A stretch of 42,871 nucleotides of DNA from an uncultured Candidatus Saccharibacteria bacterium (GTDB lineage: Bacteria > Patescibacteriota > Minisyncoccia > Minisyncoccales > CG1-02-41-26), in the NCBI GenBank assembly GCA_964450565.1, contig CAYVCP010000001.1, positions 15,073-57,943 on the forward strand. The letters are read 5' to 3'. Below the pieces are notes generated by a model that was not told where the DNA came from, ran no database searches, and worked only from the letters and a program-made list of their open reading frames with translations. This document shows, piece by piece, positions 8,196 through 41,068 of the stretch. The number at the start of each line of letters is the position of its first letter. Position 1 is the stretch's first letter. Made by a program: the position numbers and the translations under genes.

Positions 8196-8205
8196 AATTA
8201 AACAT

Positions 8206-12167: not shown

Positions 12168-12211
12168 CTTTTTTCTTTACTAATTAATCAAAAAAGAGTA
12201 ATAATATATAC

Positions 12212-13688: not shown

Positions 13689-14353
13689 AAAAATATATAG
13701 TTTGTGGATACACGCCATGGTCAAAAAAGGTTTTTGATCAAAAAATATCTAAATATAATGGAAATTGGTTTTTGTTTTCTAAGAAAAGCGACCTAACATT
13801 ATCTAGAATTAAAAAGATAGATCCAGTTTTTATCTTTTTTCTTCACTGGTCTTGGATTGTTCCAAAAGAGATAGTTGATAACTATAATTGTGTTTGTTTT
13901 CATATGACAGATGTTCCTTATGGAAGAGGAGGAAGTCCTTTGCAAAATTTGATTGTTAGAGGACATAAGACAACAAAATTAACAGCTCTAAAAATGGATC
14001 AAGGGATGGATACTGGTCCTGTTTATTTAAAAAGGCAAATGCCTTTAGATGGTAAGGCTTCAGAAATTTATGAAAGAGCTTATCTTTTGTCATCTGAAAT
14101 GATAAAAAATGTTATTAAGGGCATTAAGCCAAAACCTCAAACAGGGAAAAGCACTGTTTTCAAGCGAAGGAAGCCAGAACAAAGTGAGATTACGGCAGAA
14201 AAAATAAGTGATGTTTATGATTACATTAGAATGTTAGATGCTGAAGGATACCCCTTGGCCTTTGTCAAAAAAGACGGTTTTTTATATGAGTTTTTTGATG
14301 CTACATTAGAGAAAAAAGAAGTTATAGCAAAGGTTAGGATAAAAAAAATATGA
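13685..14353 (+). CDS. formyltransferase-domain protein (Fmt N-terminal-like)
   Basis: HMTDVPYGRGGSPLQNLI matches the formyl_trans_N active-site block (H...P.GRG..P). ATGA overlap with the pseI stop; start taken at 13685. Confidence 0.65.
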   Translation: MKKYIVCGYTPWSKKVFDQKISKYNGNWFLFSKKSDLTLSRIKKIDPVFIFFLHWSWIVPKEIVDNYNCVCFHMTDVPYGRGGSPLQNLIVRGHKTTKLTALKMDQGMDTGPVYLKRQMPLDGKASEIYERAYLLSSEMIKNVIKGIKPKPQTGKSTVFKRRKPEQSEITAEKISDVYDYIRMLDAEGYPLAFVKKDGFLYEFFDATLEKKEVIAKVRIKKI

Positions 14354-15831
14354 AAGTTTTAATTGTTGTTTCTCATCCCGATGATGAGGTTTTGGGTTGT
14401 GGAGGAATAATTTTAAAGCATATTTCCAAGGGAGATCAAGTTTATATTTTAATTTTAAGCGATGGAGAAACTTCAAGGGATCAAGGGGTTGATTTGGTAA
14501 AAAGAGAAAGTAACGCAAGGAAAGTAGCGGACATGTTAGGGGTGACTCATCTTTATTTAGAGAAATTACCAGACAATCAATGCGATGCTATCCCATTATT
14601 GAATGTGGTCAAAATAGTAGAAGGAGTGGTCAAAAAAGTTCAACCATCAATTGTTTATACTCATAATTCTTACGATTTAAATATAGACCATCAAATTGCT
14701 TTCAGGGCTGTTTTAACAGCTTGTAGGCCCCAGCCCAATTTTTTCGTTAAAAGAATTTTAGCTTTTGAGGTTCTTTCTTCTACTGAATGGCAGACGAAAG
14801 AGAGAAGCACTTTGTTTTGTCCCACCGTATACGAAGACATTACAGATTTTATTGATAAAAAAATAGAAGTTTTAAAAATCTATCAGGACGAATTAAGAGA
14901 GTATCCTCATCCAAGAAGTATAGAGGGAGTAAGAGTTTTGGCAAAATATAGGGGTATTGAATCTGGTTATAGATTTGCCGAAGCGTTTCAATTAATAAGG
15001 GAGTTAAAAGATTATGCATCAATGAAAGTTGATGGCAAAAAAATAGCTACATCAATTATTGAAGATTTAAAAAGTAAGTTTAAAGAGAATAAAGCTGTTT
15101 TGGTTCTTATTGCCATTAATCCTGATAAAGCTATCCTTTCTTTTATTGAGCAAAAAAAGAAAACAGCCCAAAGGGTAGGGGTAGAATTGAGGATTAAAGA
15201 ATTAGATCAAAATATTACCCAACAAGAAGTTTTTTCTTTACTTAAAGAAATTGGGCAAGACAAGGAGGTTGATGGCATTATTGTTCAGCTTCCCTTACCA
15301 AATCATTTGAATGAACAGGATATTTTGGACGCTATCCCGAAAGAAAAAGACGTTGATGCTTTAGGAAAAAATGCAGAAAATCTTGCCTTGTCTGTAGAAA
15401 CTGTAAAATATATTTTTAATAAATACGAGATTGATATGGATCATAAGGTAATTGTTTTGAACGGATTTGGAAAATTAGTTGGCATGCCTCTATATCATTG
15501 GTTTTGTTCTTTGGGTTTAAAAGAGAACGTAATAGTTATTAAAGAGGATACTTGTAATAAAAAAGATTTAATTAAAAAAGCAGATATTTTAATCTCAGGA
15601 GTTGGTAAAGCCAATTTGATACCATCTTACTGGTTGAAAAAAGGAGTTATTATTATTGATTTTGGTTGTGAGGTCAAACAAGGAAGAATATTTGGAGATG
15701 TGGAAAAAACAGTAAAGGAAAAAGCGAGAATTTTTACTCCGACACCAGGAGGTACAGGGCCCATCTTAGTTGCTTTAATTTTTAGAAATTTATATTCTCT
15801 CAAAAAAGCCAATGATAAAATACGGTCTTAA
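14350..15831 (+). CDS. fusion protein: N-terminal PIG-L/LmbE-type sugar N-deacetylase plus C-terminal FolD-like methylene-THF dehydrogenase/cyclohydrolase domain
   Basis: N-terminal VVSHPDDEVLGCGG and DLNIDHQ (PIG-L motifs). From the in-frame ATG at 15022: MKVDGKKIA..., VDGIIVQLPLP, KDVDA, TPTPGGTGPILVA (FolD motifs). There is no stop codon between the domains. Confidence 0.7.
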   Translation: MKVLIVVSHPDDEVLGCGGIILKHISKGDQVYILILSDGETSRDQGVDLVKRESNARKVADMLGVTHLYLEKLPDNQCDAIPLLNVVKIVEGVVKKVQPSIVYTHNSYDLNIDHQIAFRAVLTACRPQPNFFVKRILAFEVLSSTEWQTKERSTLFCPTVYEDITDFIDKKIEVLKIYQDELREYPHPRSIEGVRVLAKYRGIESGYRFAEAFQLIRELKDYASMKVDGKKIATSIIEDLKSKFKENKAVLVLIAINPDKAILSFIEQKKKTAQRVGVELRIKELDQNITQQEVFSLLKEIGQDKEVDGIIVQLPLPNHLNEQDILDAIPKEKDVDALGKNAENLALSVETVKYIFNKYEIDMDHKVIVLNGFGKLVGMPLYHWFCSLGLKENVIVIKEDTCNKKDLIKKADILISGVGKANLIPSYWLKKGVIIIDFGCEVKQGRIFGDVEKTVKEKARIFTPTPGGTGPILVALIFRNLYSLKKANDKIRS

Positions 15832-16558
15832 ACTATGGAGCAAAAACAAAGAATGGTTTCCTAAAGCCATTTCTCTTTATAATGAAGGAATTATTGATTT
15901 TATAGAGCTTTTTATTGTACCCAATACTTTAAGAGAAGTAGAGATTTTAAAAGAAGTTCCTATCGTAATACATGCACCTCATTTTACGTTTGGTTTTAAC
16001 ATTTCTAATCTTACTGAAGATAGTTTATCTATTTTTAAAGAGCAAGTAATAAAAACAGCAGATTTTTTTAATTCAGAATATATTATTGTGCACGCTGGAG
16101 TAGGTAAAGAACAAGAAGTTTTCCAAGAGAACGTTGCGAAACTTCAAGATAAGAGGATTTTAATTGAAAATATGCCGAGAAGAGGTTTTGTTGCTTCTGA
16201 TGGGGATTTGTGTTTTGGGAGTACTGTAGATGATTTAGAATTTATTAAAAAAGAATGTGGCTTAGATATTTGTTTTGATTTCTCCCACGCTTGTTCATCT
16301 GCTTTTTCTCAAGGATTAGACTATAAAGAGTATATTTCTACCCTATTAGAAAAGTTAAATCCTTTCTATTTTCATATTTCAGGTAACGAGAAAGAAACAG
16401 AGCAAGATAAACATATGAATTTATATGAAAGTGCTATTGATATTAAATGGATGAAAGAGAAAATAAAAGATAAAGATATTTTTCTAGTTGTTGAAACTCC
16501 CAAAAAGGATGGTTTAAAAAATGATCAAAAGAATATAATGTATTTGAGAAACCTTTAG
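15812..16558 (+). CDS. xylose isomerase-like TIM-barrel (sugar phosphate isomerase/epimerase, AP_endonuc_2) protein
   Basis: Pattern IELF..., HAPHF..., IIVHAG..., LIENM..., FDFSHA... is typical of this TIM-barrel family. Confidence 0.45.
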   Translation: MIKYGLKLWSKNKEWFPKAISLYNEGIIDFIELFIVPNTLREVEILKEVPIVIHAPHFTFGFNISNLTEDSLSIFKEQVIKTADFFNSEYIIVHAGVGKEQEVFQENVAKLQDKRILIENMPRRGFVASDGDLCFGSTVDDLEFIKKECGLDICFDFSHACSSAFSQGLDYKEYISTLLEKLNPFYFHISGNEKETEQDKHMNLYESAIDIKWMKEKIKDKDIFLVVETPKKDGLKNDQKNIMYLRNL

Positions 16559-16564
16559 AGATAA

Positions 16565-17808
16565 TTACATTTTTTTAAAAAAGAATAATTGCAAGAAAAA
16601 AGTGATAACTTCAAGAATTAAAAATGCTAAGATAGCTCCCCATATTCCCAAAAAGGGAATTAACAAGAGAAGTAATATAATATATATAGGAGAAAGTATA
16701 AAAGCGCCTAAGTAGAGTTGTTTTGTTTTCATCTTTGCTGTCAAAGAAGTACCCAATAATGTTCTTGGGAAGGTTAAAAGAATAAGGATATATACTTGGG
16801 AGAAAGAAACAAACTCTTTATATGCTGGAAAAAGTATTTTATATAAAAAAGGAGCCAAAAGAATATAAGAAATTATAATTGGCACTGTGATAAAAAATAT
16901 TTGTCGCATTTTTTGAGGCACTGTTTCTTTTAATTCTTGTTCACTTTTTTCTGCGTATTTGGGCAATGCAAGACTACTTACTATTTTTAAAATTTCTTTT
17001 ATTTTTATGGGCAAGGATAGTGCAATAAAATAAATAGCTACATAATCTGCTCCTAAAAAGTGCCATATAATTATTTTATCCAAATGGGAATTTACTAAAC
17101 TGAAAGAGCCTATTAAGCTTAAGTGTTTTCCGTAAGAGATTGTTTTACTGTCTTCTTGTGTGTTAATGTCACATTTTTTCTTTGTAAGAATTAAAAATAA
17201 TAAGTGTAGAAAAGACCAGATAAAAAAATAACTAAAAATAATAAGATAAAGGTTCTTTGTTAAAATTACAACCAAACTAACCGTTAAGGCAGAAACGATA
17301 TAAACAAAACTTTTTATTTTATTCTGTATGTCAAACCTTTTTTTACCTTGCCAAAAAAAGTTATATAAAGAAAAAGAATTTAGCAAAGGAATAAAAGCTG
17401 AAATTAAGACAAAACTTAAAGCTAAAGTATTATTGCCTTGCAAGAAATAATATATAGCTATTATTATTGATCCCGCTATTCCTAATGATCCCCATTTCAA
17501 TTTTGTTTTTAATGCTTTTTGAAACGATCCTTCCTTTTTCCTTGAGACAGCTTGCAAAAAAGCAATATCCATACCAGACAAAGAAGGGATAGCAAGAATT
17601 CCAGCTACGCTTAATATGTATCTATATGCTCCCAAGAGTTCTTTGGTGGCAAAGTTAGCAAAACAAGAGTAAGTAAAAGTCCCGACACAGCAGTTGCTAT
17701 TTGTCCGCAAGCTAACCAAAAACCTCCTTTAGTTAGGTAAACCATGTCCGTTTTGGTATATTTTTCTGATTTTTTTAATCCCTTGTAAATTTTATTTTTT
17801 AAAGCCAT
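16565..17808 (-). pseudogene. wzx: Wzx-type polysaccharide flippase (MOP superfamily) interrupted by a 1-nt frameshift
   Basis: Two overlapping minus-strand ORFs (17611-17808 and 16565-17719) together give a normal Wzx: ...KGGFWLACGQIATAVSGLLLTLVL | ANFATKELLGAYRYILSV... The frames switch at the GTTTTG run (plus-strand AAAA at 17660-17663). The total span of 1244 nt is one base short of a multiple of three. Confidence 0.7.
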
Positions 17809-17831
17809 AATATAATATATTATCCTAATTT

Positions 17832-18578
17832 ATGCTAAATGAAAACCCTAAAGTTTCAGTTTTAATGGCTGTTTATAATTCAGCAAAATATCTGAAGCCG
17901 TCTATAGAAAGTATATTAAATCAAACATTTATTGATTTTGAATTTATTATCATTGACGATTGTTCTAGTGATAACTCTTTATCTCTTTTGGAAAGCTATC
18001 AAGACAAAAGAATTAAAATTATTAAAAATGTTAAAAATCAGGGTTTAACTAAAAATCTTAATAAAGGTTTAAAAATAGCAAGGGGGGATTATGTCGCTCG
18101 TATGGATGATGATGACATTTCTTCTTTAGATAGATTAGAAAAACAGTATAATTTTATGGAACGAAATAAAGAAGTTTTTTTATGTGGATCCTTAGGTTAT
18201 GTTATTGATGAAAATGGAAAAAGGATAGGAGAAAAAAATTTAGAAATAAAGAATATCAAAAAGAGACTTTTATTCAATAATCAATTTATCCATTCTTCTT
18301 TGTTTTTTAAAAGGGGAGTGTTTTATGACGAGTCTTTTGAAAGAGCTCAAGATTATGAATTTGTTTTAAGAATTGCTTCAAAATATAAAGTAGCCAATCT
18401 AGAAGAGAGATTAGTAGAATGGAGGAAAAGAAAAACCTCTCTATCCTTTTCTTCAAAAAAGCAAAAGAAATGTGCTATTAAAGCAAGATGGCTTGCTATA
18501 ACAAAATATGGTTATCCTAAAATAGAAGGATTTTTCCACATCTTGCTTCGTATTGGACAGTTAATTTTCTCTAATTAA
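17832..18578 (+). CDS. family 2 glycosyltransferase
   Basis: VSVLMAVYNSAKYL..., FEFIIIDDCSSDNS, ARMDDDD (DxD). This is a canonical GT2 N-terminal domain. Confidence 0.85.
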   Translation: MLNENPKVSVLMAVYNSAKYLKPSIESILNQTFIDFEFIIIDDCSSDNSLSLLESYQDKRIKIIKNVKNQGLTKNLNKGLKIARGDYVARMDDDDISSLDRLEKQYNFMERNKEVFLCGSLGYVIDENGKRIGEKNLEIKNIKKRLLFNNQFIHSSLFFKRGVFYDESFERAQDYEFVLRIASKYKVANLEERLVEWRKRKTSLSFSSKKQKKCAIKARWLAITKYGYPKIEGFFHILLRIGQLIFSN

Positions 18579-19885
18579 CCTTTTTTAAAAAATAATTGAA
18601 AGGTTCTTAAAAGTATTCCAAGGTCTAAGATAATAGATCTATTCTTTATGTAATAAAGATCATATTGGAATTTTTCATGACTTTCTTCTTTGTTCCTTGC
18701 ATATTTTATCCATCTTGTTTGTGCCCACCCTGTAAATCCAGGCTTTATAATATGCCTTAAATCATAATGGGGAATTTCTTTTTCTAAATGTTTCACAAAT
18801 TCAGGACGTTCTGGTCGTGGACCTGTCAATGAAAGATCTCCCTTTAATACATTAATTAATTGAGGGAACTCATCTATGTGAAATCTTCTTATAACTTTTC
18901 CTGTTTTGGTCCTTCTCTTGTCTTCTTTTTCTGCCCACTTTGCTCCGTTTTGTTCAGCATTTTCTACCATAGATCTAAATTTCCATATCTGAAATGTTTT
19001 TGAGTTTTTTCCTACCCTCTGCTGTCTGTAAAAAATAGGGCCCTTATCTTCTATCTTAATTAAAAATGATGTTATAAGCCAGATGGGAAACGTAATACAT
19101 AATAGTATGCTACTTAAGAATATATCTAAAATTCTTTTTGTATTATCATAAAGTTTTTTTTCATTATTTGTCATATTATTTAAAAACCACAATTTATCTG
19201 TGAAATCAACTGGGAGTTTGTTAAGAATTAGTTCATAAGCTTTTGCTAAATCAATGAAGGTCGTAATACAAGAAAGGCATTGATACAATTCTTTAACGAT
19301 AGCTTCATTTTCTGAAATATCTTCTGCTATTATTAAGACTTTAATTTTTCCATCTATAAGTTGTTTTTTGATATTCTTTTTTTTATCAAGAAATTTAACA
19401 AACCTATACCCCAGTTGAGGCTGGGTTTCAATTTGTTTTTGTAAGTTTTCTGATAATTTTGTTTTTCCTAAGAAAGCAACGTTTTGTAAATAGACCAAAG
19501 AGAAAAGAAAAAAGAATAGTTTTCTCCAAAGAAAAATAAGAAATCCAAAGACAAGAACATTAATTAAAAGATTTGTTTTCGGTGTAATGCTGAATAGGGG
19601 AATTAAATAAAAGAAACTTAATCCAATAAGTAAACATCCTATCGTAGCTTTAATTGTTTTTGAAAGTATTTCTGTTTTTTGTCTTACTATTTTTAAATCA
19701 TAAAGGCCAAAGACATACATTATAGAGAACCAGAAGATATATAATATAGCAAAGGGCAAAATATGATCGCTTATCAATTTTTTTGTTACGTTATTCCAAA
19801 AACCTAAATATATTGTTGCAATAAAAGAAATAGATATTAAAATTATATCTCCCAAGAACAAGACGAATTGTCTTTGCTTTTTCAT
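18575..19885 (-). CDS. polyprenyl-phosphate sugar phosphotransferase (WbaP/EpsL-type initiating 'bacterial sugar transferase')
   Basis: Multi-TM N-terminus followed by KRILDIFLSSILL..., GPIFYRQQRVGKNSKTFQIWKFRSM, DEFPQLINVLKGDLSLTGPRPERPEF. Confidence 0.88.
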   Translation of the reverse strand: MKKQRQFVLFLGDIILISISFIATIYLGFWNNVTKKLISDHILPFAILYIFWFSIMYVFGLYDLKIVRQKTEILSKTIKATIGCLLIGLSFFYLIPLFSITPKTNLLINVLVFGFLIFLWRKLFFFLFSLVYLQNVAFLGKTKLSENLQKQIETQPQLGYRFVKFLDKKKNIKKQLIDGKIKVLIIAEDISENEAIVKELYQCLSCITTFIDLAKAYELILNKLPVDFTDKLWFLNNMTNNEKKLYDNTKRILDIFLSSILLCITFPIWLITSFLIKIEDKGPIFYRQQRVGKNSKTFQIWKFRSMVENAEQNGAKWAEKEDKRRTKTGKVIRRFHIDEFPQLINVLKGDLSLTGPRPERPEFVKHLEKEIPHYDLRHIIKPGFTGWAQTRWIKYARNKEESHEKFQYDLYYIKNRSIILDLGILLRTFQLFFKKG

Positions 19886-19931: not shown

Positions 19932-20291
19932 ATGCCTATGTCCATACAAGTATTTGTTAATGAATTTAAAAATAAAAAAATGAATTCAAAGAAGATAGAA
20001 AAAGAAATAACGAAGTTAATGCAGGATGAAGATGTAACAAAAGAATCTGGCATTTACCCATATGTTTTGACTAGACAAGAAAAATATCTAAATATTCGAG
20101 TATTTACCGATAAAATGAAACGAGAAGCATATGAGAGGCAAAAAGGTATTTGCCCAAGATGTAAGGAACGTTTTGAAATAGAAGAAATGGAAGCAGATCA
20201 TATAAAGCCTTGGCACGAAGGTGGAAAAACAATAGATAAAAATTGTCAAATGTTATGCAAAGAGTGTAATAGAAGAAAATCTGGAAAATAA
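19932..20291 (+). CDS. small stand-alone HNH endonuclease-domain protein
   Basis: C-terminal CPRCKERFEIEEMEADHIKPWHEGGKTIDKNCQMLCKECNRRK, i.e. CxxC...DH...N...CxxCN HNH. The start could be ATG 19932, 19938 or 19980. Confidence 0.7.
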   Translation: MPMSIQVFVNEFKNKKMNSKKIEKEITKLMQDEDVTKESGIYPYVLTRQEKYLNIRVFTDKMKREAYERQKGICPRCKERFEIEEMEADHIKPWHEGGKTIDKNCQMLCKECNRRKSGK

Positions 20292-20323
20292 AACTTAAAA
20301 GATTATTGGTAGAATTTAAGTTG

Positions 20324-20364
20324 TGTAAAGATACCTGTCAATTTGCTTGACAGGTATCTTTACA
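20324..20364 (+). terminator. perfect 18-bp inverted repeat (5-nt loop); candidate intrinsic terminator of the HNH gene and/or operator
   Basis: TGTAAAGATACCTGTCAA (20324-20341), loop TTTGC, TTGACAGGTATCTTTACA (20347-20364). Followed by only a short TTT run. Confidence 0.45.
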
Positions 20365-20375
20365 TTTGCTACGAT
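20347..20375 (+). promoter_or_regulatory. candidate sigma-70-type promoter for the XRE/Panacea operon
   Basis: TTGACA (20347-20352), a 17-nt spacer, then TACGAT (20370-20375). The -35 lies inside the right arm of the palindrome. Confidence 0.4.
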
Positions 20376-20443
20376 AGAAACGTGGCTAATAATTTTGAAA
20401 AAATAACGTGGGATATGTTAGAAAAATTATATAAAAAATAATT

Positions 20444-21220
20444 ATGATTACATTTTTAAAAAAACTTCGCCAAGAAAACGATGTGAGCCAAGGATTTTTG
20501 GCAAAAAAAATAGGTGTATCCCGTCCGACTTATGCGCAGATTGAAAGCGGTGCGCGAGACATATCTGTAAAAGAAGCGCAAAAATTAGCCCGATTTTTTG
20601 GATTGTCTTTAGAAAATTTTCTTGCTGGTAAAAAAACACCGGAGTCAAAAGTAGAATTGGAGAAAACAAAAAAGAAAAAAATACAAAAAATTGAACCTCG
20701 TGATTCAGTACCTCAGGAAAAAGTAGAAAAATTCAAAGAAGTACTTTTGTATATTTTGGAAAAAATAGGTGCGCGTCCAAATGTCGGCGAAGCTGTCGTG
20801 TGTAAATTAATGTATTTTATTGACTTTGATTATTATGAAAAATTTGAGGAACAATTAATTGGGGCTAAATATATAAAAAATCATTTTGGACCAACCCCTG
20901 TTGCTTTTCCTGAGATTATTGCGCAAATGGAACAAAATGGTGATTTGACACGTGTTACAAAAAAATATTTTCAACACGATCAAAAAAAATATTTACCACG
21001 CAGATTTGCCGACCTTTCGAATTTTTCAGCTAGAGAAAAAGAATTAATTGATTGGGAAATTGAACGATTTAAGGAGTTTAACGCTACAAAGATGCGTAAT
21101 TATTCACACAAAGATGTTCCGTGGATTGGTGCTGACGATCTACAACCGATTAACTATGAAGCGGTTTTTTCTCGTACCGATGAATTTTCCGTAAGACAAT
21201 ACGATGATGAACTATTATGA
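20444..21220 (+). CDS. XRE-family HTH protein fused to a Panacea (DUF4065/SocA-like) domain; putative PanA-type antitoxin
   Basis: N-terminal LRQENDVSQGFLAKKIGVSRPTYAQIESGARDISVKEAQKLARFFG (HTH_3). C-terminal VVCKLMYFIDFDYYEKFEEQLIGAKYIKNHFGPTPVAFPEII resembles DUF4065. Confidence 0.65.
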   Translation: MITFLKKLRQENDVSQGFLAKKIGVSRPTYAQIESGARDISVKEAQKLARFFGLSLENFLAGKKTPESKVELEKTKKKKIQKIEPRDSVPQEKVEKFKEVLLYILEKIGARPNVGEAVVCKLMYFIDFDYYEKFEEQLIGAKYIKNHFGPTPVAFPEIIAQMEQNGDLTRVTKKYFQHDQKKYLPRRFADLSNFSAREKELIDWEIERFKEFNATKMRNYSHKDVPWIGADDLQPINYEAVFSRTDEFSVRQYDDELL

Positions 21221-21569
21221 AACAGAAGAATTTACACGTGATTTTAAAAAACTGCTGAAGAAATTTTCATCATTGGCGGAAGACTTAGAAGTGAACAAGC
21301 AATATCGGATTGAGCTTTTTCATTGTAAGGGGATAGATAGTAAGGGTATTATTGAAATTCAAGGAGTTGGCAATACAACGGAGCTTAAATTTTTTAAAGT
21401 TAAAAAATTTCAATGTAAAGACTTAAAAGGTCGTGGAGCAAAAAGTGGCATTCGTGTTATTTATGCTTATTTTCCTGTTGAACAAAAAATAGTGTTTATA
21501 GAAATATATTTTAAAGCAAATCAAAACAACGAGAACAAACAAAGAATTATTAATTTTATAAATACATAA
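21204..21569 (+). CDS. RelE/ParE-superfamily (HigB/Gp49-like) toxin candidate
   Basis: 121 aa. The C-terminal core GIRVIYAYFPVEQKIVFIEIYFKANQ is typical of RelE/ParE-fold toxins. Overlaps the upstream antitoxin-like gene by 17 nt. Confidence 0.55.
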   Translation: MMNYYETEEFTRDFKKLLKKFSSLAEDLEVNKQYRIELFHCKGIDSKGIIEIQGVGNTTELKFFKVKKFQCKDLKGRGAKSGIRVIYAYFPVEQKIVFIEIYFKANQNNENKQRIINFINT

Positions 21570-21572
21570 TTT

Positions 21573-22154
21573 ATGAATATAGAATACGAAGCAACATTTT
21601 TAAACATTAATAAAGATGTTATACGGGAGAAGTTGAAAAACATTAATGCTAAATTAGTTAAAGCTGAATATTTACAAAAGCGAGTTGTTTTTAATTTACC
21701 AAAAAATATAGATGGAGCACATAAATGGGTTAGAGTAAGAGATGAGGGGGATAAAATTACGATGAGTTTGAAAGATGTCGATGCTGGAAAAATAGAAAAC
21801 CAAAAAGAGGTTTGTTTAAGGGTGGGCGATTTCAAGAACGCTGTGGATCTATTAGAATTAAGTGGGTTTCATAAAAAAGCGTATCAGGAGAATAAGAGAG
21901 AAAAATGGCTATGTGATGAGTGCGAGATAGATATTGACGAATGGCCATTTTTAGAACCATATATAGAAATTGAGTCAACAAGTGAGCAGTTAGTAAAAGA
22001 TATGGCTCAAAAATTAGGATTTGATTACTCTAAAGCATTGTTCTGTTCTACAACCACTATTTATGCTAAAAAATATAATATATCGGATGATATTATAAAC
22101 AACCAAACACCAAAAATAATTTTCAATATGGAAAATCCGTTTTTGAGAAGATAA
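21573..22154 (+). CDS. CYTH-domain protein (class IV adenylyl cyclase / triphosphate tunnel metalloenzyme family)
   Basis: N-terminal IEYEATF (ExExK-like), WVRVRDEGDKITMSLKD, ENQKEVCLRV, REKWLCDECEIDIDEWPFLEPYIEIES. This follows the CYTH beta-strand pattern. The start is 4 nt after the toxin stop. Confidence 0.55.
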   Translation: MNIEYEATFLNINKDVIREKLKNINAKLVKAEYLQKRVVFNLPKNIDGAHKWVRVRDEGDKITMSLKDVDAGKIENQKEVCLRVGDFKNAVDLLELSGFHKKAYQENKREKWLCDECEIDIDEWPFLEPYIEIESTSEQLVKDMAQKLGFDYSKALFCSTTTIYAKKYNISDDIINNQTPKIIFNMENPFLRR

Positions 22155-28875: not shown

Positions 28876-29799
28876 TTAAGGTTTTACTAAATCATAAAAG
28901 AAACCTTTGAATCCAGCAGTGTTTAACCAATAATTGTTTGGATTCTGTTTTAAATATTTTTGAATTTCTTTTCTTTGTGTCGTTAATTTATCTCCGGATT
29001 TACTATTAGATAAAAGGATGTTTGAATAATTACCATCTAAGAAAGAGACATAAGAAATGTTCAGGGTTTTTTCTTTGAGATTTAATATTTCAATTAATTC
29101 TGAAATTTGCTTATCTTGTCCACCACCAGAAGTATTGAGGTGTTTGGCTTCTATTAAAAATATTTCATTTCTATATTTAACAACTAAATCAAGCATTTTT
29201 CCCTGTTTTTTAGTTTTAATTTTAATATTTAAATTTTCCCTAATCTTTTCTACGCTAAAGACCTTAGAGAACTGAGTAATACATTTATTCAATTTATGAA
29301 AATCTTCCCAATTTTTGATTTCTTTAAATCCTAATTTCTTTAATATAGAAATTAATTTTAATTCTCCACACCTTCCTTTTTTTCGAGATGAGTTGGAATC
29401 TATGATTGCTTGAATCCATTCTTCTGGGACTAAATCGCTTAAAAACCTTTTAGAAAAGTATTTCTGGGTGATTTCCTTTGTTAAATCCAAGCTCTTTTTA
29501 GTTGCATCTAATGTATTGTCACAAGCATTAACAAAACAAGCAAATTCAGAGCAATTAGAAAATTTTGTTAGAGACCCTTGAAGTTCTAAAAAATATTTAT
29601 TGATTATTCTAGGGTCTTCTTTTTTCTTTTGTAGCATTTTAATTGTAGTCAAAATTTCTTTAATTTCTTTTGTGTTTTTAACATATTTTGCTAAATTCAA
29701 ATTCTTTTGATCAAAGATATAAAAATCATCTAAAGAAGGCTCTGGGTTTTCTTGAGATATTTTAAAATAGTGTTGGTTGTTTTGAGTATTCTTTTTCAT
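28876..29799 (-). CDS. type II restriction endonuclease candidate (PD-(D/E)xK-like core)
   Basis: Immediately downstream of, and overlapping, an N6-adenine methyltransferase gene. SSRKKGRCGELKL and LDLVVKYRNEIFLIEAKHLNTSGGGQDK give a D...E-x-K nuclease-like core reminiscent of DpnII-type enzymes. Specificity is unknown. Confidence 0.55.
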   Translation of the reverse strand: MKKNTQNNQHYFKISQENPEPSLDDFYIFDQKNLNLAKYVKNTKEIKEILTTIKMLQKKKEDPRIINKYFLELQGSLTKFSNCSEFACFVNACDNTLDATKKSLDLTKEITQKYFSKRFLSDLVPEEWIQAIIDSNSSRKKGRCGELKLISILKKLGFKEIKNWEDFHKLNKCITQFSKVFSVEKIRENLNIKIKTKKQGKMLDLVVKYRNEIFLIEAKHLNTSGGGQDKQISELIEILNLKEKTLNISYVSFLDGNYSNILLSNSKSGDKLTTQRKEIQKYLKQNPNNYWLNTAGFKGFFYDLVKP

Positions 29800-30901
29800 A
29801 AAGATAGTTTAAGAATTTATATGTGAAATCAAAAGATATTCTTTTACGGCCATTGTCTCTAAAGTTAGTAAGAAAAAAAGAAAAGTATTTTTTTCTATTT
29901 TCATTTAATCTTTTATTAAATTCTTGCATTAGTTTTTCTTGTTCTTCTATGGTAATTTCCTGGCCAAAAATTATATGAGCCATATTTCGGGACGTATTTT
30001 TACCAATAAGTCCTAGGATGTTATATTCCCTTATATCCTCAAGTTGTATCTTTTTTCCGTTTTTACTGTCAATAGCTCTCAATAGTAGAATGTTTCTTTC
30101 TAAACGATTTTTTACATTTTTATGGATGCTATAATCTTTTATTTCTTTTACATTTTGAAATGCCATTTTAGCTTTATAGTTTCCGGATTCCAGAAAATTT
30201 TCAGTTAAACGAAAAATTTCTAAACCATTTTTTGCATTTTTTACTTGATCAATAAAATTTCCACCTAATTGCCAATCAAATCTTTTTTCTATAACAAAAT
30301 TAATTTTTTCTTTTATTGGAAAGATAGTAGCTGAAATTTTACTTTGATCCTTAAAATCATTTTTCTTTTTGTAATAAAAAGAGACTACATTATAGGTTGT
30401 ATCCTTAAAAACTTGTTGAAAAAAAATATTTAATTTCATAATTTTAAATTTCTCAAAAAATAGATTTCTGATTTTTTTTGAGTTTTGCGCACAAAGGAAA
30501 TTTAATGGAATAATTAAAATTCCTTCTTCTGAGTCCAATATCGAGTAAATAGAAATTTGGTATAAATCTTCCAAGGAAGGATGAGTACCAGAAAAGAAAT
30601 TTTCTTTTGTTTTCTTATCGGCTTTATTTTTATGTAAATATGGTGGATTAGTCAAAACAAATTTATATTTTTTAGGATTATTGATTGAGTCGTCAAAGAA
30701 GACATTCTTATCATCAACATAACTTTTGTCATATTCAAAACCAATAATTTTTTTACATTTGTTCTGTTTAGCCCAACTAAATAAATCTTGATTACCTGCA
30801 AACGGATCGATTATTTCTTTATCTTTAACAAATTGCTCTAGCCCTTGAAGAATATATTTGGAGTTTGTAGTAAAAAATTGTCCTAATAGTGCCTTGGTCA
30901 T
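29762..30901 (-). CDS. N6-adenine DNA methyltransferase (gamma-class order: motif X, motif I, NPPY)
   Basis: LGQFFTT (motif X-like), IIDPFAGNQDLF (motif I-like), VLTNPPYL (motif IV NPPY). The 3' end overlaps the nuclease gene start by 38 nt. Confidence 0.75.
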   Translation of the reverse strand: MTKALLGQFFTTNSKYILQGLEQFVKDKEIIDPFAGNQDLFSWAKQNKCKKIIGFEYDKSYVDDKNVFFDDSINNPKKYKFVLTNPPYLHKNKADKKTKENFFSGTHPSLEDLYQISIYSILDSEEGILIIPLNFLCAQNSKKIRNLFFEKFKIMKLNIFFQQVFKDTTYNVVSFYYKKKNDFKDQSKISATIFPIKEKINFVIEKRFDWQLGGNFIDQVKNAKNGLEIFRLTENFLESGNYKAKMAFQNVKEIKDYSIHKNVKNRLERNILLLRAIDSKNGKKIQLEDIREYNILGLIGKNTSRNMAHIIFGQEITIEEQEKLMQEFNKRLNENRKKYFSFFLTNFRDNGRKRISFDFTYKFLNYLYEKEYSKQPTLF

Positions 30902-33360: not shown

Positions 33361-34338
33361 ATGCAAAAGATTGATTATAAAAAGATTTCACAAAATATTT
33401 TATCAAACCTTTCCAAGAGACAAAAAGAAGTTCTTGAGAGGAGGTTTGGTTTAGATGGATATAAACAAGAAACTCTCCAACAAATTGGTATGGATTTTGG
33501 TGTTACAAGAGAAAGAATAAGACAAATTGAGAGAGAGGCGTTTTTGAAATTAAGAAAAAAAGAGGATAAATTAAGAATTGTATTCAATCATTTTATTGAT
33601 TATTTGAATAAGAATGGTGGACAAAAGAGAGAGGATCTGTTAATTAAAGATTTGGCAGAGGATCAAAAAGCTTATATCTATTTTTTGCTTTGTATAGGCA
33701 GTGTTTTCTTTAGACAAAAAGAGGACAATGATGTTCACTCTTTTTGGTCTAATACCAAAGACGCTAAAGAAAAACTAGACAAAGAAGTTTTTCCTTTAAT
33801 TCAGGAACTTAAGAAAAAGAATAAACCGGTTGAAGAAAAATATGTTTTTCAATTAGTTTCAGCTTCTTCTTTAGAAATTACAAGGCGCATTGAAAAAGGA
33901 CCGTTAGGTAATTTTGGGCTATCTTTCTGGCCTGAAATTAATCCTAAAGGAGTTAGAGATACAGCATATCTTGTATTAAAGAAAACAGAACAACCTATTC
34001 ATTTTAGAGAGATTGCTTCTAGGTCAAACCAACTTTATGCGCAAACTAAAAAAGTATTACCACAAACCGTTCACAATGAATTAATAAGAGATCCTAGGTT
34101 TGTTTTAGTTGGCAGGGGTATTTATGCTTTAAAAGAATGGGGCTATGACTCTGGGACTGTTAAAGATGTTATTTTGAATACTTTGAAGAAATCTAAAAAA
34201 CCATTGTCTAAAAATGAAATTTTAAATGCAGTGAAAAAGCAAAGAATTGTAAAAGACAATACTATCTTTCTTAATCTTTCTGATAAGACTAGTTTTAAAA
34301 GAAACCTAGATGGCAAATACGTTATAAGAATGGCTTGA
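33361..34338 (+). CDS. sigma-70 region-4-like HTH protein with a C-terminal HARE-HTH domain (not a complete sigma factor)
   Basis: LSKRQKEVLERRFGLDGYKQETLQQIGMDFGVTRERIRQIEREAFLKLRK matches sigma-70 region 4. The C-terminal IHFREIASRS...TVHNELIRDPRFVLVGRGIYALKEWGY matches the HARE-HTH pattern. No region 2 was seen. Confidence 0.65.
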   Translation: MQKIDYKKISQNILSNLSKRQKEVLERRFGLDGYKQETLQQIGMDFGVTRERIRQIEREAFLKLRKKEDKLRIVFNHFIDYLNKNGGQKREDLLIKDLAEDQKAYIYFLLCIGSVFFRQKEDNDVHSFWSNTKDAKEKLDKEVFPLIQELKKKNKPVEEKYVFQLVSASSLEITRRIEKGPLGNFGLSFWPEINPKGVRDTAYLVLKKTEQPIHFREIASRSNQLYAQTKKVLPQTVHNELIRDPRFVLVGRGIYALKEWGYDSGTVKDVILNTLKKSKKPLSKNEILNAVKKQRIVKDNTIFLNLSDKTSFKRNLDGKYVIRMA

Positions 34339-34369: not shown

Positions 34370-35662
34370 ATGAATTATTTAGCAATAATAAAGGAAATAG
34401 CTTTTATTATTTGGCAAACCTTAGAAAATTGGTGGTGGGTACCTTTACCTATCATTCTTTTTTTACTCCTTAAGTATTTTTATATTTGGTTTTTGAATAA
34501 TAAGTATTGGGCAAGGGTCAAATGGATTACACTTGAGATGAAAATACCTCAAGATGTAGATAGACCACTGAAAGCCATGGAGGCTGTGATTGCTAATTTT
34601 TGGACACTATATGATCCCGCTGATTTTAAAGAGATTTGGTGGGAGGGAAAATTTCAAGTTCCTTTTTTCCTTGAAATTGCAGGTATTGACGGTGACGTTC
34701 ATTTTTTCTTAAGAATGCCCTCATCTATGAGAAATGTTTTTGAATCAGGTATTTATTCGCAATATCCAGAAGTAGAAATTATAGAGGTTGAGGATTATGT
34801 TAAAAATGTTCCTCAAGATATTCCTAACGAACAATGGGATATGTGGGGTTGTAATTTTAAATCAACTAGAAGAGGAGATCCAAATTCTGATTGTTATCCT
34901 ATCAAAACTTATTCTAGTTTTTTTGAACCAACCCAAGAGATTGCAGAAGAAAGAAGAGTAGATCCCTTAGCTGTGTTAATTGAAGGAATGTCAAGATTAA
35001 AGCAAGGAGAACAGCTTTGGTTTCAAATGAGGTTAACACCCATTCCTGGAAGGAAATGGGTTGGGAGATGTAAAACTGTTGTTAACGAATTAGCCCAAAG
35101 ACCGAAAGAGAAACAACCCAAATCAATTACAGCTTCAGCTGTTGATTTGTTGGTTCATAATGAAATGCCATTTCAGAAGGTAGTAGAAGAAAGACAAGAT
35201 ACTATTCCACCTGAAATGAGAATGACACCGGGAGAGAGAAGTATTGTTGAATCTATTGAAGAGAAAATGTCCAAACATGGTTTTGAAACTAACATGAGAA
35301 TGATTTATTTAGGAGATAAAAACGTTTTTTTTAAGCCTAATTTAAAACTTATTTTAAATTTCTCTGTTGCTGTATCAACAGAAAATATGAACGGTTTAAT
35401 GCCAGCCCAAACAACCAAGGTAGTTCCTCCAACTATGTTTAGACAGAGAAAGTTATATATGAAAAAAAAGCGGATGTTTAGAAGATATGCAAAAAGATGG
35501 ACTCCTAATTATCCTTGGTCAGGAGGAACTTTTGTTATGAACACAGAAGAAGTAGCTACTTTGTTTCATTTTCCGAGCAAGGCAGGAGCTCCTACCCCTT
35601 CATTTCAACGCATAGAATCGAGGAAGTCAGGACCTCCTTATTCCTTACCCATTGAAGAATAA
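34370..35662 (+). CDS. conserved hypothetical protein with an N-terminal membrane anchor
   Basis: 430-aa ORF with one or two N-terminal hydrophobic segments (WWWVPLPIILFLLLKYFYIWF), then a soluble domain. Separated by 5 nt from the downstream ATPase gene. I recognise no motif. Confidence 0.5.
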   Translation: MNYLAIIKEIAFIIWQTLENWWWVPLPIILFLLLKYFYIWFLNNKYWARVKWITLEMKIPQDVDRPLKAMEAVIANFWTLYDPADFKEIWWEGKFQVPFFLEIAGIDGDVHFFLRMPSSMRNVFESGIYSQYPEVEIIEVEDYVKNVPQDIPNEQWDMWGCNFKSTRRGDPNSDCYPIKTYSSFFEPTQEIAEERRVDPLAVLIEGMSRLKQGEQLWFQMRLTPIPGRKWVGRCKTVVNELAQRPKEKQPKSITASAVDLLVHNEMPFQKVVEERQDTIPPEMRMTPGERSIVESIEEKMSKHGFETNMRMIYLGDKNVFFKPNLKLILNFSVAVSTENMNGLMPAQTTKVVPPTMFRQRKLYMKKKRMFRRYAKRWTPNYPWSGGTFVMNTEEVATLFHFPSKAGAPTPSFQRIESRKSGPPYSLPIEE

Positions 35663-35667
35663 AAAAT

Positions 35668-37347
35668 ATGGAAGAAGAAATTAATTTTTTTGGTAGAACA
35701 ACTTTTAGGAATGAAAATAAGAAGTTTGGTATTAAATGCGACGATAGAAGGCGTCATGTTTATGTTATTGGAAAAACTGGAATGGGAAAAACTAACCTTC
35801 TCAAAGTAATGGCTATTCAAGATATTAAGAATGGTCATGGCGTTGGTTTTGTGGATCCTCATGGAGAGGCAGCTGAAGAATTACTTGAATATGTGCCCAA
35901 AGATAGAATGAAAGATGTCGTTTACTTCAATCCAGCAGATAGAGATTTTCCTATCAGTTTTAATGTAATGGAGAATGTAGCGCCTGAATTAAGACATTTA
36001 GTTGCTTCTGGATTAATGGGTGTGTTTAAAAAAATATGGCCCGATGTATGGTCAGCAAGAATGGAATATATTCTTCATAATTGTATTTTAGCATTACTGG
36101 AGCATCCAACTACTACTCTTCTTGGTATTAATAGAATGCTTTCTGATTCAGATTATAGAAGCTTGGTTGTTGAGGGAATAACAGATCCTGTGATTAAAGC
36201 TTTTTGGACCCAGGAATTTTCAAGATATACCCAGAGATACGAAGTTGAAGCGACTGCTGCTATTCAAAATAAAATTGGGCAATTTATTTCTTCTCCTTTA
36301 ATTAGGAATATTATAGGACAAGTTGAATCAAGCATAGATATTAGAAAGTTGATGGATGAAAGAAAGATTTTAATATTTAATTTATCCAAGGGAAGGATAG
36401 GGGAGGACTGTTCAAAATTATTAGGTGGTCTTTTAATTACTAAACTGCAATTGGCTGCCATGTCTAGAGTTGATATCAAAGAAGAGGAAAGACAAGACTT
36501 TTTCTTATATGTAGACGAATTTCAAAATTTTGCAACAGAATCATTCACTAATATTCTTTCTGAAGCTAGGAAGTATAGACTAAGTTTAATTTTAGGACAT
36601 CAATACATAGCTCAAATGGAAGATCCCGTAAGAGATGCTGTTTTTGGAAACGTTGGTACTCTTATTACTTTTAGGGTTGGAGCTGAAGATGCTGAGTTTT
36701 TAGAAAGAGAATTTCAACCTTATTTTACAGCTCAAGATTTAGTAAATTTACCCAAATGGCAGATATATTTAAAGCTTATTGTTGATGGAGTAGCTGGAAA
36801 TCCTTTTTCCGCTCAAACATTAGAGCCTTTTTCAGAACCAGAAAAGTCTTATAAAAATGAAATTATTAATTTCTGTAGAGGAAACTATGCTTCTCCGAGA
36901 GAAATAGTGGAAAAAAGAATTAGTAAATGGTCTGATAATTTTGCTCATAGTAATAAAGAAGAAACAAAAAAAGAGGTAGAAATGTTTGAAGTTCAATGCA
37001 AGGAGTGTGGTAAGTGGACCAGGGTACCATTTAAACCAAAACCAGATAGGCCAGTTTACTGTAAGACATGTTTAAAGAAATTAGAGAACGAAAAGGTTAA
37101 ACAACCAGAAAAAGAAGAAAAACAACCAGAAAAAGAAGAAAAACAACCAGAAAAAGAAGAAAAACAATTAGAGAAAGAGAATGTATTTTCCTTAGAACAA
37201 CTTTTAACGAAAAAACCAATATCTTTTTCTAAAAAACAACAAGAGAGAAAAGAGCTTGATAAAGAAAAACTTAAGCAAGTTTTAAGAGATTCTTTAAAAG
37301 ATTCTAAAAAGCAAAAAATAGAACCTGGTGACACAATTAAATTTTAA
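35668..37347 (+). CDS. VirD4/TraD/TraG-like (type IV coupling protein family) P-loop NTPase with a C-terminal CxxC...CxxC zinc ribbon and a Lys/Glu-rich repeat tail
   Basis: Walker A YVIGKTGMGKTN, GFVDPHGE, Walker B-like FFLYVDEFQNF, and the TraG-D_C-like EARKYRLSLILGHQYIAQM. Zinc ribbon CKECGKWTRVPFKPKPDRPVYCKTC at 36997-37071. Confidence 0.7.
   Translation: MEEEINFFGRTTFRNENKKFGIKCDDRRRHVYVIGKTGMGKTNLLKVMAIQDIKNGHGVGFVDPHGEAAEELLEYVPKDRMKDVVYFNPADRDFPISFNVMENVAPELRHLVASGLMGVFKKIWPDVWSARMEYILHNCILALLEHPTTTLLGINRMLSDSDYRSLVVEGITDPVIKAFWTQEFSRYTQRYEVEATAAIQNKIGQFISSPLIRNIIGQVESSIDIRKLMDERKILIFNLSKGRIGEDCSKLLGGLLITKLQLAAMSRVDIKEEERQDFFLYVDEFQNFATESFTNILSEARKYRLSLILGHQYIAQMEDPVRDAVFGNVGTLITFRVGAEDAEFLEREFQPYFTAQDLVNLPKWQIYLKLIVDGVAGNPFSAQTLEPFSEPEKSYKNEIINFCRGNYASPREIVEKRISKWSDNFAHSNKEETKKEVEMFEVQCKECGKWTRVPFKPKPDRPVYCKTCLKKLENEKVKQPEKEEKQPEKEEKQPEKEEKQLEKENVFSLEQLLTKKPISFSKKQQERKELDKEKLKQVLRDSLKDSKKQKIEPGDTIKF
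37099..37182 (+). repeat. in-frame 21-bp tandem repeat (3 perfect copies plus 1 degenerate copy) encoding (KQPEKEE)3-KQLEKEN
   Basis: AAACAACCAGAAAAAGAAGAA occurs at 37099-37119, 37120-37140 and 37141-37161. A fourth copy at 37162-37182 has 6 mismatches. Confidence 0.9.
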
Positions 37348-40709: not shown

Positions 40710-41046
40710 GCCTGAGCAGGCAAGACAATCGCTCTCTAAATTTTTTTAGAGGGAGGAAAGTCCGAACATCCACTTTGTTAAAAAGTAGCATGGTAGCGGG
40801 TAACGCCCGTCGGGAGTAATCCTAGAGGTGCGATTAGAGACGCCTTTTTTTGCAAAGAAAAAGGCCCCTTAGGGGTGAGCTTTTGGGAAACCTAAAGTTG
40901 AAACGGCTAAATCCTTACCTGGATGCAAGAACAAAGTCTTCGGCGTTCTCCGGATTCGCCGAAGATAAAAAGTAGTTCGCATTAGATAAATGATTGTCAC
41001 TCAGCTTTGTGCTGAGAACAGAATTCGGCTTATTGCCTGCTTGAGC
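40710..41046 (+). ncRNA. rnpB: RNase P RNA, bacterial type A (ends approximate, +/-5 nt)
   Basis: 5' P4 strand GAGGAAAGTCCG (about 40752-40763) and 3' P4 strand ACAGAATTCGGCTTA (about 41018-41032). The P1 helix pairs GAGCAGGCAA (40714-40723) with TTGCCTGCTT (41033-41042), and there is a GGTAACGCC-type P10/11 region. The segment is GC-enriched in an AT-rich context. Confidence 0.9.
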
Positions 41047-41068
41047 TTTTTTGTTTACAATAGATGAT

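Follow-up and report, generated by a model that had tools for sequence, protein, structure and literature searches.

A DUF8128 membrane protein and a TrwB/VirD4-type ATPase form a conserved gene pair in Patescibacteria and may be the two halves of one coupling protein

Our study concerns two adjacent genes, here called A and B, in a 42.9-kb stretch of Patescibacteria DNA (contig CAYVCP010000001.1; "the window" denotes this whole stretch). Both genes begin with ATG, encode proteins of 430 and 559 residues, and are separated by 5 nt (AAAAT) between the stop codon of A and the start codon of B. A first-pass annotation, made from the letters alone, had described an anchored open reading frame (ORF) 5 nt upstream of a P-loop protein with the motifs GKTGMGKTN, FLYVDEFQNF and EARKYRLSLILGHQY, and the ORF list and translation confirm this arrangement, placing the motifs at aa 35-43, 279-288 and 299-313 of B. 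Its further statement that the surroundings hold no machinery for secretion or conjugation also holds: Pfam scans of ORFs of at least 100 aa, together with tblastn searches with VirB4, PrgI, TrbL and Replic_Relax queries, found no VirB4, VirB6, relaxase or pilin gene in the window. We identify B as a soluble ATPase of the TrwB/VirD4 type, and A as the N-terminal module, with the membrane anchor, of a type IV coupling protein (T4CP) of the DUF8128 class; this module is encoded here as a separate gene.

The assignment of A rests on the family PF26449 (DUF8128), which is the precomputed Pfam match of A itself (P0001) and of nearly all of its homologues. The earlier statement that this ORF carries no nameable motif is therefore true of our local copies of Pfam and NCBIfam, which gave no match to A (the local Pfam copy does not return the PF26449 model), and is superseded by the precomputed assignment. 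A sequence search of the PDB with the A profile gave no match, and we found no paper that mentions either DUF8128 or PF26449. The family is large, with 2,868 clusters at 50% identity for E ≤ 1e-3 and 932 for E ≤ 1e-30, and the relatives that carry a name are Patescibacteria (Gribaldobacteria, Nealsonbacteria, Paceibacterota and others).

The AlphaFold2 (AF2) model of A (pLDDT 82.6, pTM 0.79) consists of two N-terminal helices followed by an alpha/beta domain. The first helix is amphipathic and the second is hydrophobic and rich in aromatic residues, with the motif WWWxPLP(I/F)ILF, of which W21, W23 and P27 are conserved. Residues 24-42 form the single hydrophobic segment of the protein, where the Kyte-Doolittle mean over 19 aa reaches its maximum of 2.0. 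Among 35 homologues, the 15 residues before this segment hold on average 0.6 Lys or Arg and the 15 residues after it 2.4; this enrichment C-terminal to the hydrophobic helix indicates, by the positive-inside rule, that the globular domain of A is cytoplasmic. A Foldseek search of the PDB with the model returned TrwK/VirB4 chains of plasmid R388 as all of its best 14 matches (E 5e-5 to 7e-3, probability 0.93-1.0, TMq 0.30-0.39; the tool does not report the aligned ranges), and beyond these only unrelated alpha+beta folds with poor scores. No TrwB, HerA or FtsK structure is among the matches and A has no P-loop, and we infer from these two observations that the resemblance is to the VirB4-specific part that is not the ATPase. 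The predicted fold of A would thus resemble the N-terminal part of VirB4.

The protein encoded by gene B scores above the curated Pfam cut-offs for TrwB_AAD_bind (40.5 bits against a cut-off of 20.5, aa 25-319), DUF87 and TraG-D_C. TrwB is the sole match in a phmmer search of the PDB, and the alignment pairs the Walker A motif of B with GATGTGKS of TrwB and its Walker B motif with LWLFIDEL. The AF2 model of B (pLDDT 80.4, falling below 50 for aa 478-530) likewise has TrwB as its best Foldseek match (E 1e-12, TMt 0.62-0.68), with HerA, DotL and Cagbeta next in rank; defence HerA complexes are also among the matches, and no VirB4 chain occurs in the top 50. The Pfam and structural results agree with the coupling-protein type that the first-pass annotation had proposed for this ATPase. 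Seven helices (aa 106-216) lie between the Walker A and Walker B motifs in the model, as in the all-alpha domain of T4CPs. B has no transmembrane segment (maximum 19-aa hydropathy 1.1), and it is not a member of the NCBIfam TraD/VirD4 equivalogs TIGR03743, TIGR03754, NF045973 and TIGR02759, where it scores 16-49 bits against cut-offs of 250-650.

Beyond the motor, B continues into a zinc ribbon and a charged tail, in the place where T4CPs usually carry recognition tails. The four ribbon cysteines (C444, C447, C465 and C468) are invariant, and a strict regular expression finds the motif in 44 of the 64 complete B ORFs of related loci. Zinc binding has been demonstrated for the same motif in small proteins of M. 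mazei (PMC12704099). The ribbon is a candidate module for binding substrate, nucleic acid or a partner. The repeat that encodes the tail has a Tandem Repeats Finder score of 139 with 94% matches, and the final residues of B (I.PG.T.KF) reappear in the consensus of its homologues. In PADLOC, B also matches mad8, a model from the MADS defence system, over aa 17-363 with 55.7 bits, which exceeds its Pfam T4CP score and indicates that mad8 lies in the same neighbourhood of T4CP/HerA-like ATPases as B.

Table 1. Genes A and B, their main segments and the gene preceding them, in positions of the window.
Feature	Positions	Strand	Basis and details
Gene A, DUF8128 (PF26449) protein, 430 aa	34370..35662	+	ORF, precomputed PF26449, hhalign, AF2
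A, N-terminal anchor, aa 1-49	34370..34516	+	AF2 helices at residues 3-21 and 25-49; hydropathy
A, C-terminal tail, aa ~393-430	35548..35662	+	Conserved motif EE(L/V)AT(L/I)(F/W)HFP...AP...R...PP..LP
Gene B, soluble TrwB/VirD4-type coupling-protein ATPase, 559 aa	35668..37347	+	ORF, Pfam, phmmer, AF2, Foldseek
B, Walker A, GKTGMGKT, aa 35-42	35770..35793	+	Invariant G35, K36, T37, G38, K41
B, Walker B region, FLYVDEFQNF, aa 279-288	36502..36531	+	Invariant D283, E284, F285, Q286, N287
B, zinc ribbon, CxxC-x17-CxxC treble-clef, aa 438-471	36979..37080	+	Pfam zf_Tbcl_2 55.4 bits; TIGR04272 54.9 bits
B, Lys/Glu-rich tail, KQPEKEE heptads	37099..37178	+	21-nt tandem repeat, 3.8 copies; predicted disordered
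Sigma-70 region 4 + HARE-HTH protein	33361..34338	+	Pfam Sigma70_r4 aa 14-66, HARE-HTH aa 200-260; lacks sigma region 2

The relationship between the two genes becomes apparent from relatives outside the Patescibacteria. A tblastn search of plasmids with B led to an 812-aa protein annotated as a 'type IV secretory system conjugative DNA transfer family protein' on a plasmid of Embleya sp. NBC_00896 (WP_331738717.1), whose C-terminal half is 29% identical to B and whose N-terminal half has a transmembrane segment and, after it, a polybasic stretch. A search with this N-terminal half found 85 proteins, most of which carry PF26449, many of them in one chain with a T4CP Pfam family, and those with a source name are all actinobacterial. 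Fused forms, with PF26449 and PF10412, PF01935 or PF12696 in one chain, occur in Streptomyces and among actinobacterial metagenome proteins, and a split form is seen in Streptomyces yunnanensis, where a 460-aa DUF8128 protein accompanies a 384-aa TraG-D_C ATPase. Comparison of the patescibacterial alignment (A1) with the actinobacterial DUF8128 alignment (A3) by hhalign gave a probability of 93.9% and an E of 1.5e-7 over 361 columns, spanning positions 10-430 of the query and 26-391 of the target, which is essentially the whole protein. Because these profiles align over nearly their full length, and PF26449 and the T4CP Pfam families share chains, we conclude that A is the N-terminal module of a coupling protein. 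This identification replaces the uncharacterised, stand-alone two-component device that had been suggested for the pair, since in actinobacterial modules for type IV secretion systems (T4SS) the same ATPase has DUF8128 next to it or in one chain with it.

The junction between the two modules points in the same direction. The tail of A, in which E393, E394, H400, P423 and P427 are invariant and the model confidence is low (pLDDT 49-69), ends in EEVATLFHFPSKAGAPTPSFQRIESRKSGPP, the same motif that closes the N-terminal half of the Embleya protein (SVPELAALAHLP..APGLTRAGARSVVPP). In the 812-aa chain this motif (SVPELAALAHLP..APG..R..PP), aligned by hhalign, stands directly before the P-loop domain. 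As the motif is where the fused actinobacterial proteins pass into their ATPase domain, the tail of A is likely to be a docking segment for B.

In Streptomyces and Nonomuraea the gene order is T4SS_pilin, TrbL_3 (VirB6-like), PrgI (VirB3-like), a VirB4-like ATPase, DUF8128/T4CP, a Replic_Relax relaxase and an NlpC/P60 hydrolase, and the annotated stretch of the Embleya plasmid holds PrgI, the VirB4-like ATPase, DUF8128/T4CP, relaxase and NlpC/P60; the setting of the actinobacterial proteins is a conjugation module of the monoderm T4SS type. Like A and B together, the actinobacterial proteins (those of Embleya and S. yunnanensis, and the 682-aa protein P0441 of Nonomuraea rubra) present a transmembrane anchor and DUF8128 followed by a TrwB-like ATPase, with the junction motif ELAxLxHxP...AP...R...PP and an ATPase of ~29-31% identity to B. 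Unlike B, the ATPase of the fused relatives has its anchor in the same chain, and their genes lie between VirB4 and the Replic_Relax relaxase, whereas A and B lie in a block of housekeeping genes. Relative to these proteins, B has gained the C-terminal CxxC-x17-CxxC zinc ribbon and charged tail, and the pair is vertically conserved across the Patescibacteria.

Three further plasmid-borne or long T4CP relatives were examined. On a plasmid of Haladaptatus pallidirubidus (NZ_CP085307; L090, 3575-4627) a 350-aa hypothetical protein is encoded directly upstream of an 895-aa T4CP-like gene; it matches the DUF8128 profile with E 0.013 over 250 columns and shares the landmarks YPI, Q-V-x-x-R-P, GFxTNxR and ELAxxxHxP. 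From this weak match, pairs of a DUF8128-like protein and a T4CP may also exist on haloarchaeal plasmids. A plasmid of Sulfitobacter mediterraneus (NZ_CP081110; L081, 5986-7173) encodes a stand-alone 395-aa ATPase that is 41% identical to B over aa 3-385, where the other plasmid matches among those listed have ~26-35% identity; no DUF8128 gene accompanies it, its neighbours are a recombinase and transposases, and it may be a horizontally transferred motor of the type found in the candidate phyla radiation (CPR). A 708-aa T4CP-like protein of Bradyrhizobium was considered as a carrier of DUF8128 and rejected, as its N-terminus is unrelated; the module is hence absent from some long T4CP relatives.

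Within the Patescibacteria, a scan of one genome per GTDB species found relatives of A in at least 577 stretches, and the counts given here are from the best 80; adjacency was counted in the 72 of these 80 loci whose sequence extends at least 700 nt downstream. A homologue of B follows A on the same strand in 69 of the 72, with gaps of 6-238 nt between the tblastn matches and no A-B fusion among them, so that the two genes do co-occur; the first-pass annotation had named a lack of co-occurrence as an outcome that would refute its idea. At the three exceptions (L037, L052 and L070), A is followed by a Fic-like protein (from reading of the sequence), by small inserted ORFs and a membrane ORF, or by an MltG-like gene, and in our view these loci have undergone local insertion or rearrangement and do not speak against the pairing. 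A gene encoding sigma-70 region 4 and HARE-HTH domains (sigma-r4/HARE-HTH) lies immediately 5' of A in all 72 loci; the script counted 71, to which L051, where the gene overlaps the start of A by 1 nt, was added. With secD and secF 5' in most related loci and pgk, DHH and rnh 3' in the closer ones, the conserved chromosomal order is secDF, sigma-r4/HARE-HTH, A, B, pgk, DHH, rnh. Identity across these species is 50-76% for B and 30-54% for A. Relatives of A are absent from 2.9 million viral contigs and from 72,556 plasmids. The fixed, conserved block and the lack of viral or plasmid relatives of A show that the pair is a vertically inherited core chromosomal locus and not an integrative conjugative element; the other possibility once raised for B, a canonical TraD/VirD4 protein on an integrated conjugative element, is contradicted by the same findings.

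The linkage to the sigma-like gene is deeper than general synteny and extends to Ca. Southlakia epibionticum ML1. There SEML1_0293, a protein of 921 aa with T4CP Pfam domains at aa 402-719, lies directly downstream of SEML1_0294, an essential gene with Sigma70_r4 and HARE-HTH domains (PMC10633639, Tables S1 and S2). SEML1_0293 is flagged as a core, Patescibacteria-enriched family and was non-essential at all three time points of transposon sequencing (Tn-seq) in co-culture, although its normalized reads fell from 5,817 to 2,940 and 1,372 over two passages while non-essential neighbours stayed flat or rose (PMC10633639). Like A and B together, it has its T4CP domains after ~400 residues and directly follows a Sigma70_r4 and HARE-HTH gene; unlike them it is one fused chain, and its other neighbours differ. 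SEML1_0293 is thus an apparent fused orthologue of A-B, and if its N-terminus is DUF8128, the fusion as well as the linkage with the sigma-like gene reach the Saccharibacteria. The same genome encodes a second, essential T4CP-like protein, SEML1_0142 (1,019 aa), with a TraM-recognition domain, an FtsK-like P-loop region at aa 381-800 and an N-terminal region of ~380 aa (PMC10633639). The possibility that the sigma-like neighbour of A is a diverged Replic_Relax relaxase was rejected, as BLASTP showed no similarity, and in PADLOC this protein matches only the region-4 end of the MzaA model.

Orphan T4CPs in Patescibacteria have been reported before. A survey found 5,713 VirD4-type T4CP homologues in 2,918 of 3,035 genomes (96%), just 148 of them near virB4, with VirB4 in 2,417 genomes and 109 relaxases in total (Quinonero-Coronel et al., 2025, PMC12102498). 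Its authors derive the Patescibacteria T4SS, mostly without relaxases, from the MPF-FATA class, and they leave open an exaptation of the T4CP (PMC12102498). The actinobacterial DUF8128 modules are of the same MPF-FATA class. Proteins of the SEML1_0142 type may account for the roughly two T4CP homologues per genome in that survey. In Ca. S. epibionticum, neither a coupling protein nor a relaxase is recognisable in the essential T4SS cluster (Wang et al., 2023, PMC10633639). We did not find in the literature the DUF8128 identity of the partner, the split/fused relationship, the VirB4-like predicted fold, the zinc ribbon or the linkage to the sigma-r4/HARE-HTH gene.

A comparison with well-studied systems places B among coupling proteins. 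Like TrwB of R388, VirD4 and TraD, it has a P-loop nucleotide-binding domain with an inserted all-alpha domain, and TrwB is its best PDB match in both sequence and structure. The identity to these proteins is ~15%; in contrast to them, B has no N-terminal transmembrane domain in its own chain, the anchor being on A, and A adds a large cytoplasmic domain that TrwB, VirD4 and TraD lack. Canonical T4CPs are encoded with relaxase and/or T4SS genes, as are the actinobacterial relatives, whereas B is not, either in the window or, by tblastn, in the 80 related loci. VirB4/TrwK resembles A and B together in size and layout, a membrane-proximal N-terminal domain preceding a RecA-like ATPase, but shows no sequence similarity to A, and B resembles TrwB rather than the C-terminal domain of VirB4. 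With HerA-type ATPases, including defence HerA and mad8 of MADS, B shares the FtsK/HerA superfamily and a DUF87 match above cut-off; it differs from them in lacking the HerA N-terminal barrel and a NurA, Sir2 or nuclease partner, and in being core rather than island-like.

From this analysis we think it on balance probable that A and B are each one half of a single T4CP of the DUF8128 class, which serves a T4SS encoded elsewhere in the genome. This is the simplest reading because DUF8128 is fused or adjacent to the same ATPase in complete monoderm T4SS modules, relaxase included. A would act as the membrane anchor, with its N-terminal helix pair in the membrane and the remainder, including the alpha/beta domain with its VirB4-like predicted fold, in the cytoplasm; in VirB4 itself, the specific N-terminal part attaches the ATPase to inner-membrane subunits of the T4SS. 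B would be the TrwB-like P-loop motor with its all-alpha domain, presumably a hexamer by analogy with TrwB, VirD4 and HerA, and the cytoplasmic domain and C-terminal tail of A would tether the B ring to the membrane. TrwB forms hexamers, and the C-terminal tails of TraD and DotL are recognition sites; in B, the zinc ribbon and charged tail may select the cargo. The A-B complex could then dock on the T4SS (VirB4, VirB6, VirB3 and pilins) encoded elsewhere, and ATP hydrolysis by B would feed the substrate into its channel. As most Patescibacteria genomes have no relaxase, the cargo is probably protein, or nucleic acid handled independently of a relaxase. The ancestral setting would have been a conjugation module of the monoderm, MPF-FATA type, in which both modules were fused or adjacent and stood next to VirB4 and the relaxase; the patescibacterial pair would since have become core chromosomal, linked to the sigma-r4/HARE-HTH gene and unlinked from the T4SS cluster. 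The homology, domain architecture, synteny and predicted folds reported above form the base of this scheme, while the physical complex of A and B, the hexamer, the cooperation with a T4SS and the cargo are proposed by analogy.

Several observations weigh against this scheme. The VirB4-like fold of A comes from Foldseek, at TM-scores of just 0.30-0.39, and the A profile gave E 0.3 against TrwK of R388 in hhalign, which is no sequence support for the link. Comparison of DUF8128 with the actinobacterial VirB4 proteins of the same modules gave E 0.17 and 0.063, and the latter alignment covers only a P-loop stretch brought into A3 by partially fused members. A has no match to Pfam CagE_TrbE_VirB either, so that by no sequence test is it a VirB4, and because the profiles are negative we keep the VirB4 link solely as a structural lead. 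T4SS channel genes are missing near the pair in the 80 related loci as well as in the window, by tblastn of limited sensitivity. Of the surveyed Patescibacteria genomes, ~500 more have T4CP homologues than have VirB4 (PMC12102498), which fits a role that is not strictly bound to the T4SS; genome incompleteness could contribute to the difference. The reading of residues 1-400 of SEML1_0293 as DUF8128 draws on length and synteny rather than on sequence comparison. The T4SS is essential in Ca. S. epibionticum and SEML1_0293 is not, so that the essential function of the T4SS there is independent of this protein. VirD4 is dispensable for pilus biogenesis, and the dispensability of SEML1_0293 fits pilus or contact functions that need VirB4 but not the T4CP; it fits a role independent of the T4SS equally well.

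Such a role is the core of the main rival explanation, in which a B hexamer anchored by A, alone or with partners outside the T4SS such as type IV pili or ComEC, transports DNA or protein through the single membrane, as a T4CP exapted from conjugation. We regard this as a real but doubtful possibility. It would account for a pair that never lies beside T4SS genes, for T4CP homologues that are commoner than VirB4 (2,918 against 2,417 of 3,035 genomes) and for which exaptation has been raised (PMC12102498), for an orthologue that is dispensable where the T4SS is essential, and for the strong purifying selection on B seen in its 50-76% identity across species. On the other side, A brings one marginally hydrophobic helix per subunit and shows no evidence of a pore, each setting of DUF8128 with the ATPase found outside the CPR is a full T4SS module, and ~80% of Patescibacteria genomes encode a T4SS with no adjacent T4CP of its own. 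The tests made here gave no direct support to the T4SS-independent 'minimal translocator' of the first-pass annotation. A bolder form of the same idea, which we consider rather improbable, is that the pair is a phylum-wide T4SS-independent membrane motor, exapted from conjugation and coupled to the essential sigma-r4/HARE-HTH protein, possibly handing nucleic acid (DNA or transcripts) or nucleoprotein from the transcription or chromosome machinery to the surface or the host, and that DUF8128 is an ancestral VirB4-like N-terminal domain that links VirB4 and the coupling proteins. The neighbouring gene also invites the view that B is a cytoplasmic HerA/FtsK-like nucleic-acid motor tied to the sigma-r4/HARE-HTH protein, at work at the membrane on transcription complexes or on chromosomal DNA, for segregation, repair or nucleoid anchoring and not for secretion. 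The adjacency in 72 of 72 loci, kept in the Saccharibacteria where other synteny is gone, a zinc ribbon whose type is associated with transcription proteins and the presence of HerA among the best structural matches of B all agree with it. We nevertheless hold it to be distinctly unlikely: the sigma-like gene is essential and the T4CP-like gene is not, so that there is no single common indispensable function; B stands nearer to TrwB than it does to HerA and FtsK; in Ca. S. epibionticum an FtsK-like protein, SEML1_0142, is encoded separately and is essential; and gene order by itself is weak evidence where genomes keep long-range synteny.

The matches of B to mad8 (55.7 bits) and, weakly, to HerA defence models, the defence HerA complexes among its structural matches and a restriction-modification pair 3.5 kb upstream could be taken to mean that A and B form an anti-phage defence module, a HerA- or mad8-like ATPase with an accessory protein. 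Defence systems are typically patchy and island-borne, but the pair is highly conserved in sequence and, in 80 species, holds a fixed place within a conserved block of housekeeping genes, T4CP homologues are near-universal in the phylum, and A has neither a PADLOC match nor a recognisable effector domain. The core-genome pattern and the lack of an effector led us to reject this interpretation, to which we attach very little probability. Descent from a mobile element appears still more remote. That the relatives outside the CPR lie on conjugative modules, and that a B-like stand-alone ATPase lies beside transposases on the Sulfitobacter plasmid, might suggest that the pair is what remains of a plasmid or of an integrated element, conjugative or mobilisable; against this stand the same housekeeping flanks in dozens of species, the lack of any integrase, relaxase or T4SS gene in the window by Pfam scans, and a GC content and GC skew over 34-37.4 kb that are the same as in the rest of the window. 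The synteny, together with the empty searches of viral contigs and plasmids for A, rules out an origin as an integrative conjugative element, plasmid or phage for practical purposes.

The surroundings of the pair are those of an ordinary chromosomal region. The window has ~30% GC, with nearly all genes on the + strand. It holds, in order, a nonulosonic-acid/glycan cluster, a Panacea-type antitoxin-like gene, a Wzy_C protein, MurB, SecA, a minus-strand restriction-modification pair, SecD, SecF, the sigma-r4/HARE-HTH gene, A and B, and after these PGK, a DHH phosphoesterase, RNase H, a HAD hydrolase, RNase P RNA and MurJ. Promoter and terminator scans gave results at chance level, and a claim about operon boundaries can be drawn only from the 5-nt spacing of A and B and from the overlap of B with pgk: the 3' end of B shares 20 nt (37328-37347) with the GTG start of the pgk ORF, which suggests that the two are co-transcribed or translationally coupled.

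Other features of the window touch on neither gene. Between secA and secD, 28876-30901 on the minus strand encodes a restriction endonuclease similar to DpnII/Tsp45I, beside a 379-aa ORF that contains an NPPY motif, has no Pfam match and is a likely methyltransferase; with the lowest GC of the window (0.255-0.26) and a reversed GC skew, this segment looks like an inserted restriction-modification cassette. The surface-glycan cluster (183-19885, ~20 kb) is large for a small genome, and encodes a NeuB-type nonulosonic acid synthase, a CMP-sugar cytidylyltransferase, a DegT aminotransferase, two 4,6-dehydratases, several glycosyltransferases, six ORFs with class-I methyltransferase domains and a Bac_transf priming transferase. 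A 493-aa ORF at 14350-15831 (+) joins an N-terminal PIG-L domain (GlcNAc-PI de-N-acetylase type) to a complete FolD (THF dehydrogenase/cyclohydrolase), an unusual fusion. An accessory patch at 19932-22154 (+) holds an HNH endonuclease ORF, an ORF with HTH_3 and SocA/Panacea antitoxin-like domains and a CYTH-domain protein; the 121-aa ORF that follows the SocA/Panacea-like ORF has no Pfam match and is a possible toxin. A full-length bacterial class A RNase P RNA (120.8 bits) lies at 40713-41047 (+) between the HAD hydrolase gene and murJ, and no tRNA gene was found across the whole window.

Patescibacteria rely on surface machines for life on their hosts, and the T4SS is essential in the one species tested (PMC10633639). 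The 2025 survey could not place the orphan T4CP homologues of the phylum (PMC12102498). Our analysis gives the orphan T4CP a defined architecture, a DUF8128 module and a TrwB-like motor, with an origin that can be traced to monoderm conjugation modules, and the split/fused relationship predicts that A and B form a physical complex. DUF8128 in turn gains a functional context, and a possible structural bridge between VirB4 and the T4CPs is flagged. The result is an incremental step and adds no new category of machine, but it turns an orphan ATPase into a defined two-part machine, and makes the cargo of the CPR T4SS, and its use of this motor, a testable question in a tractable Saccharibacteria system.

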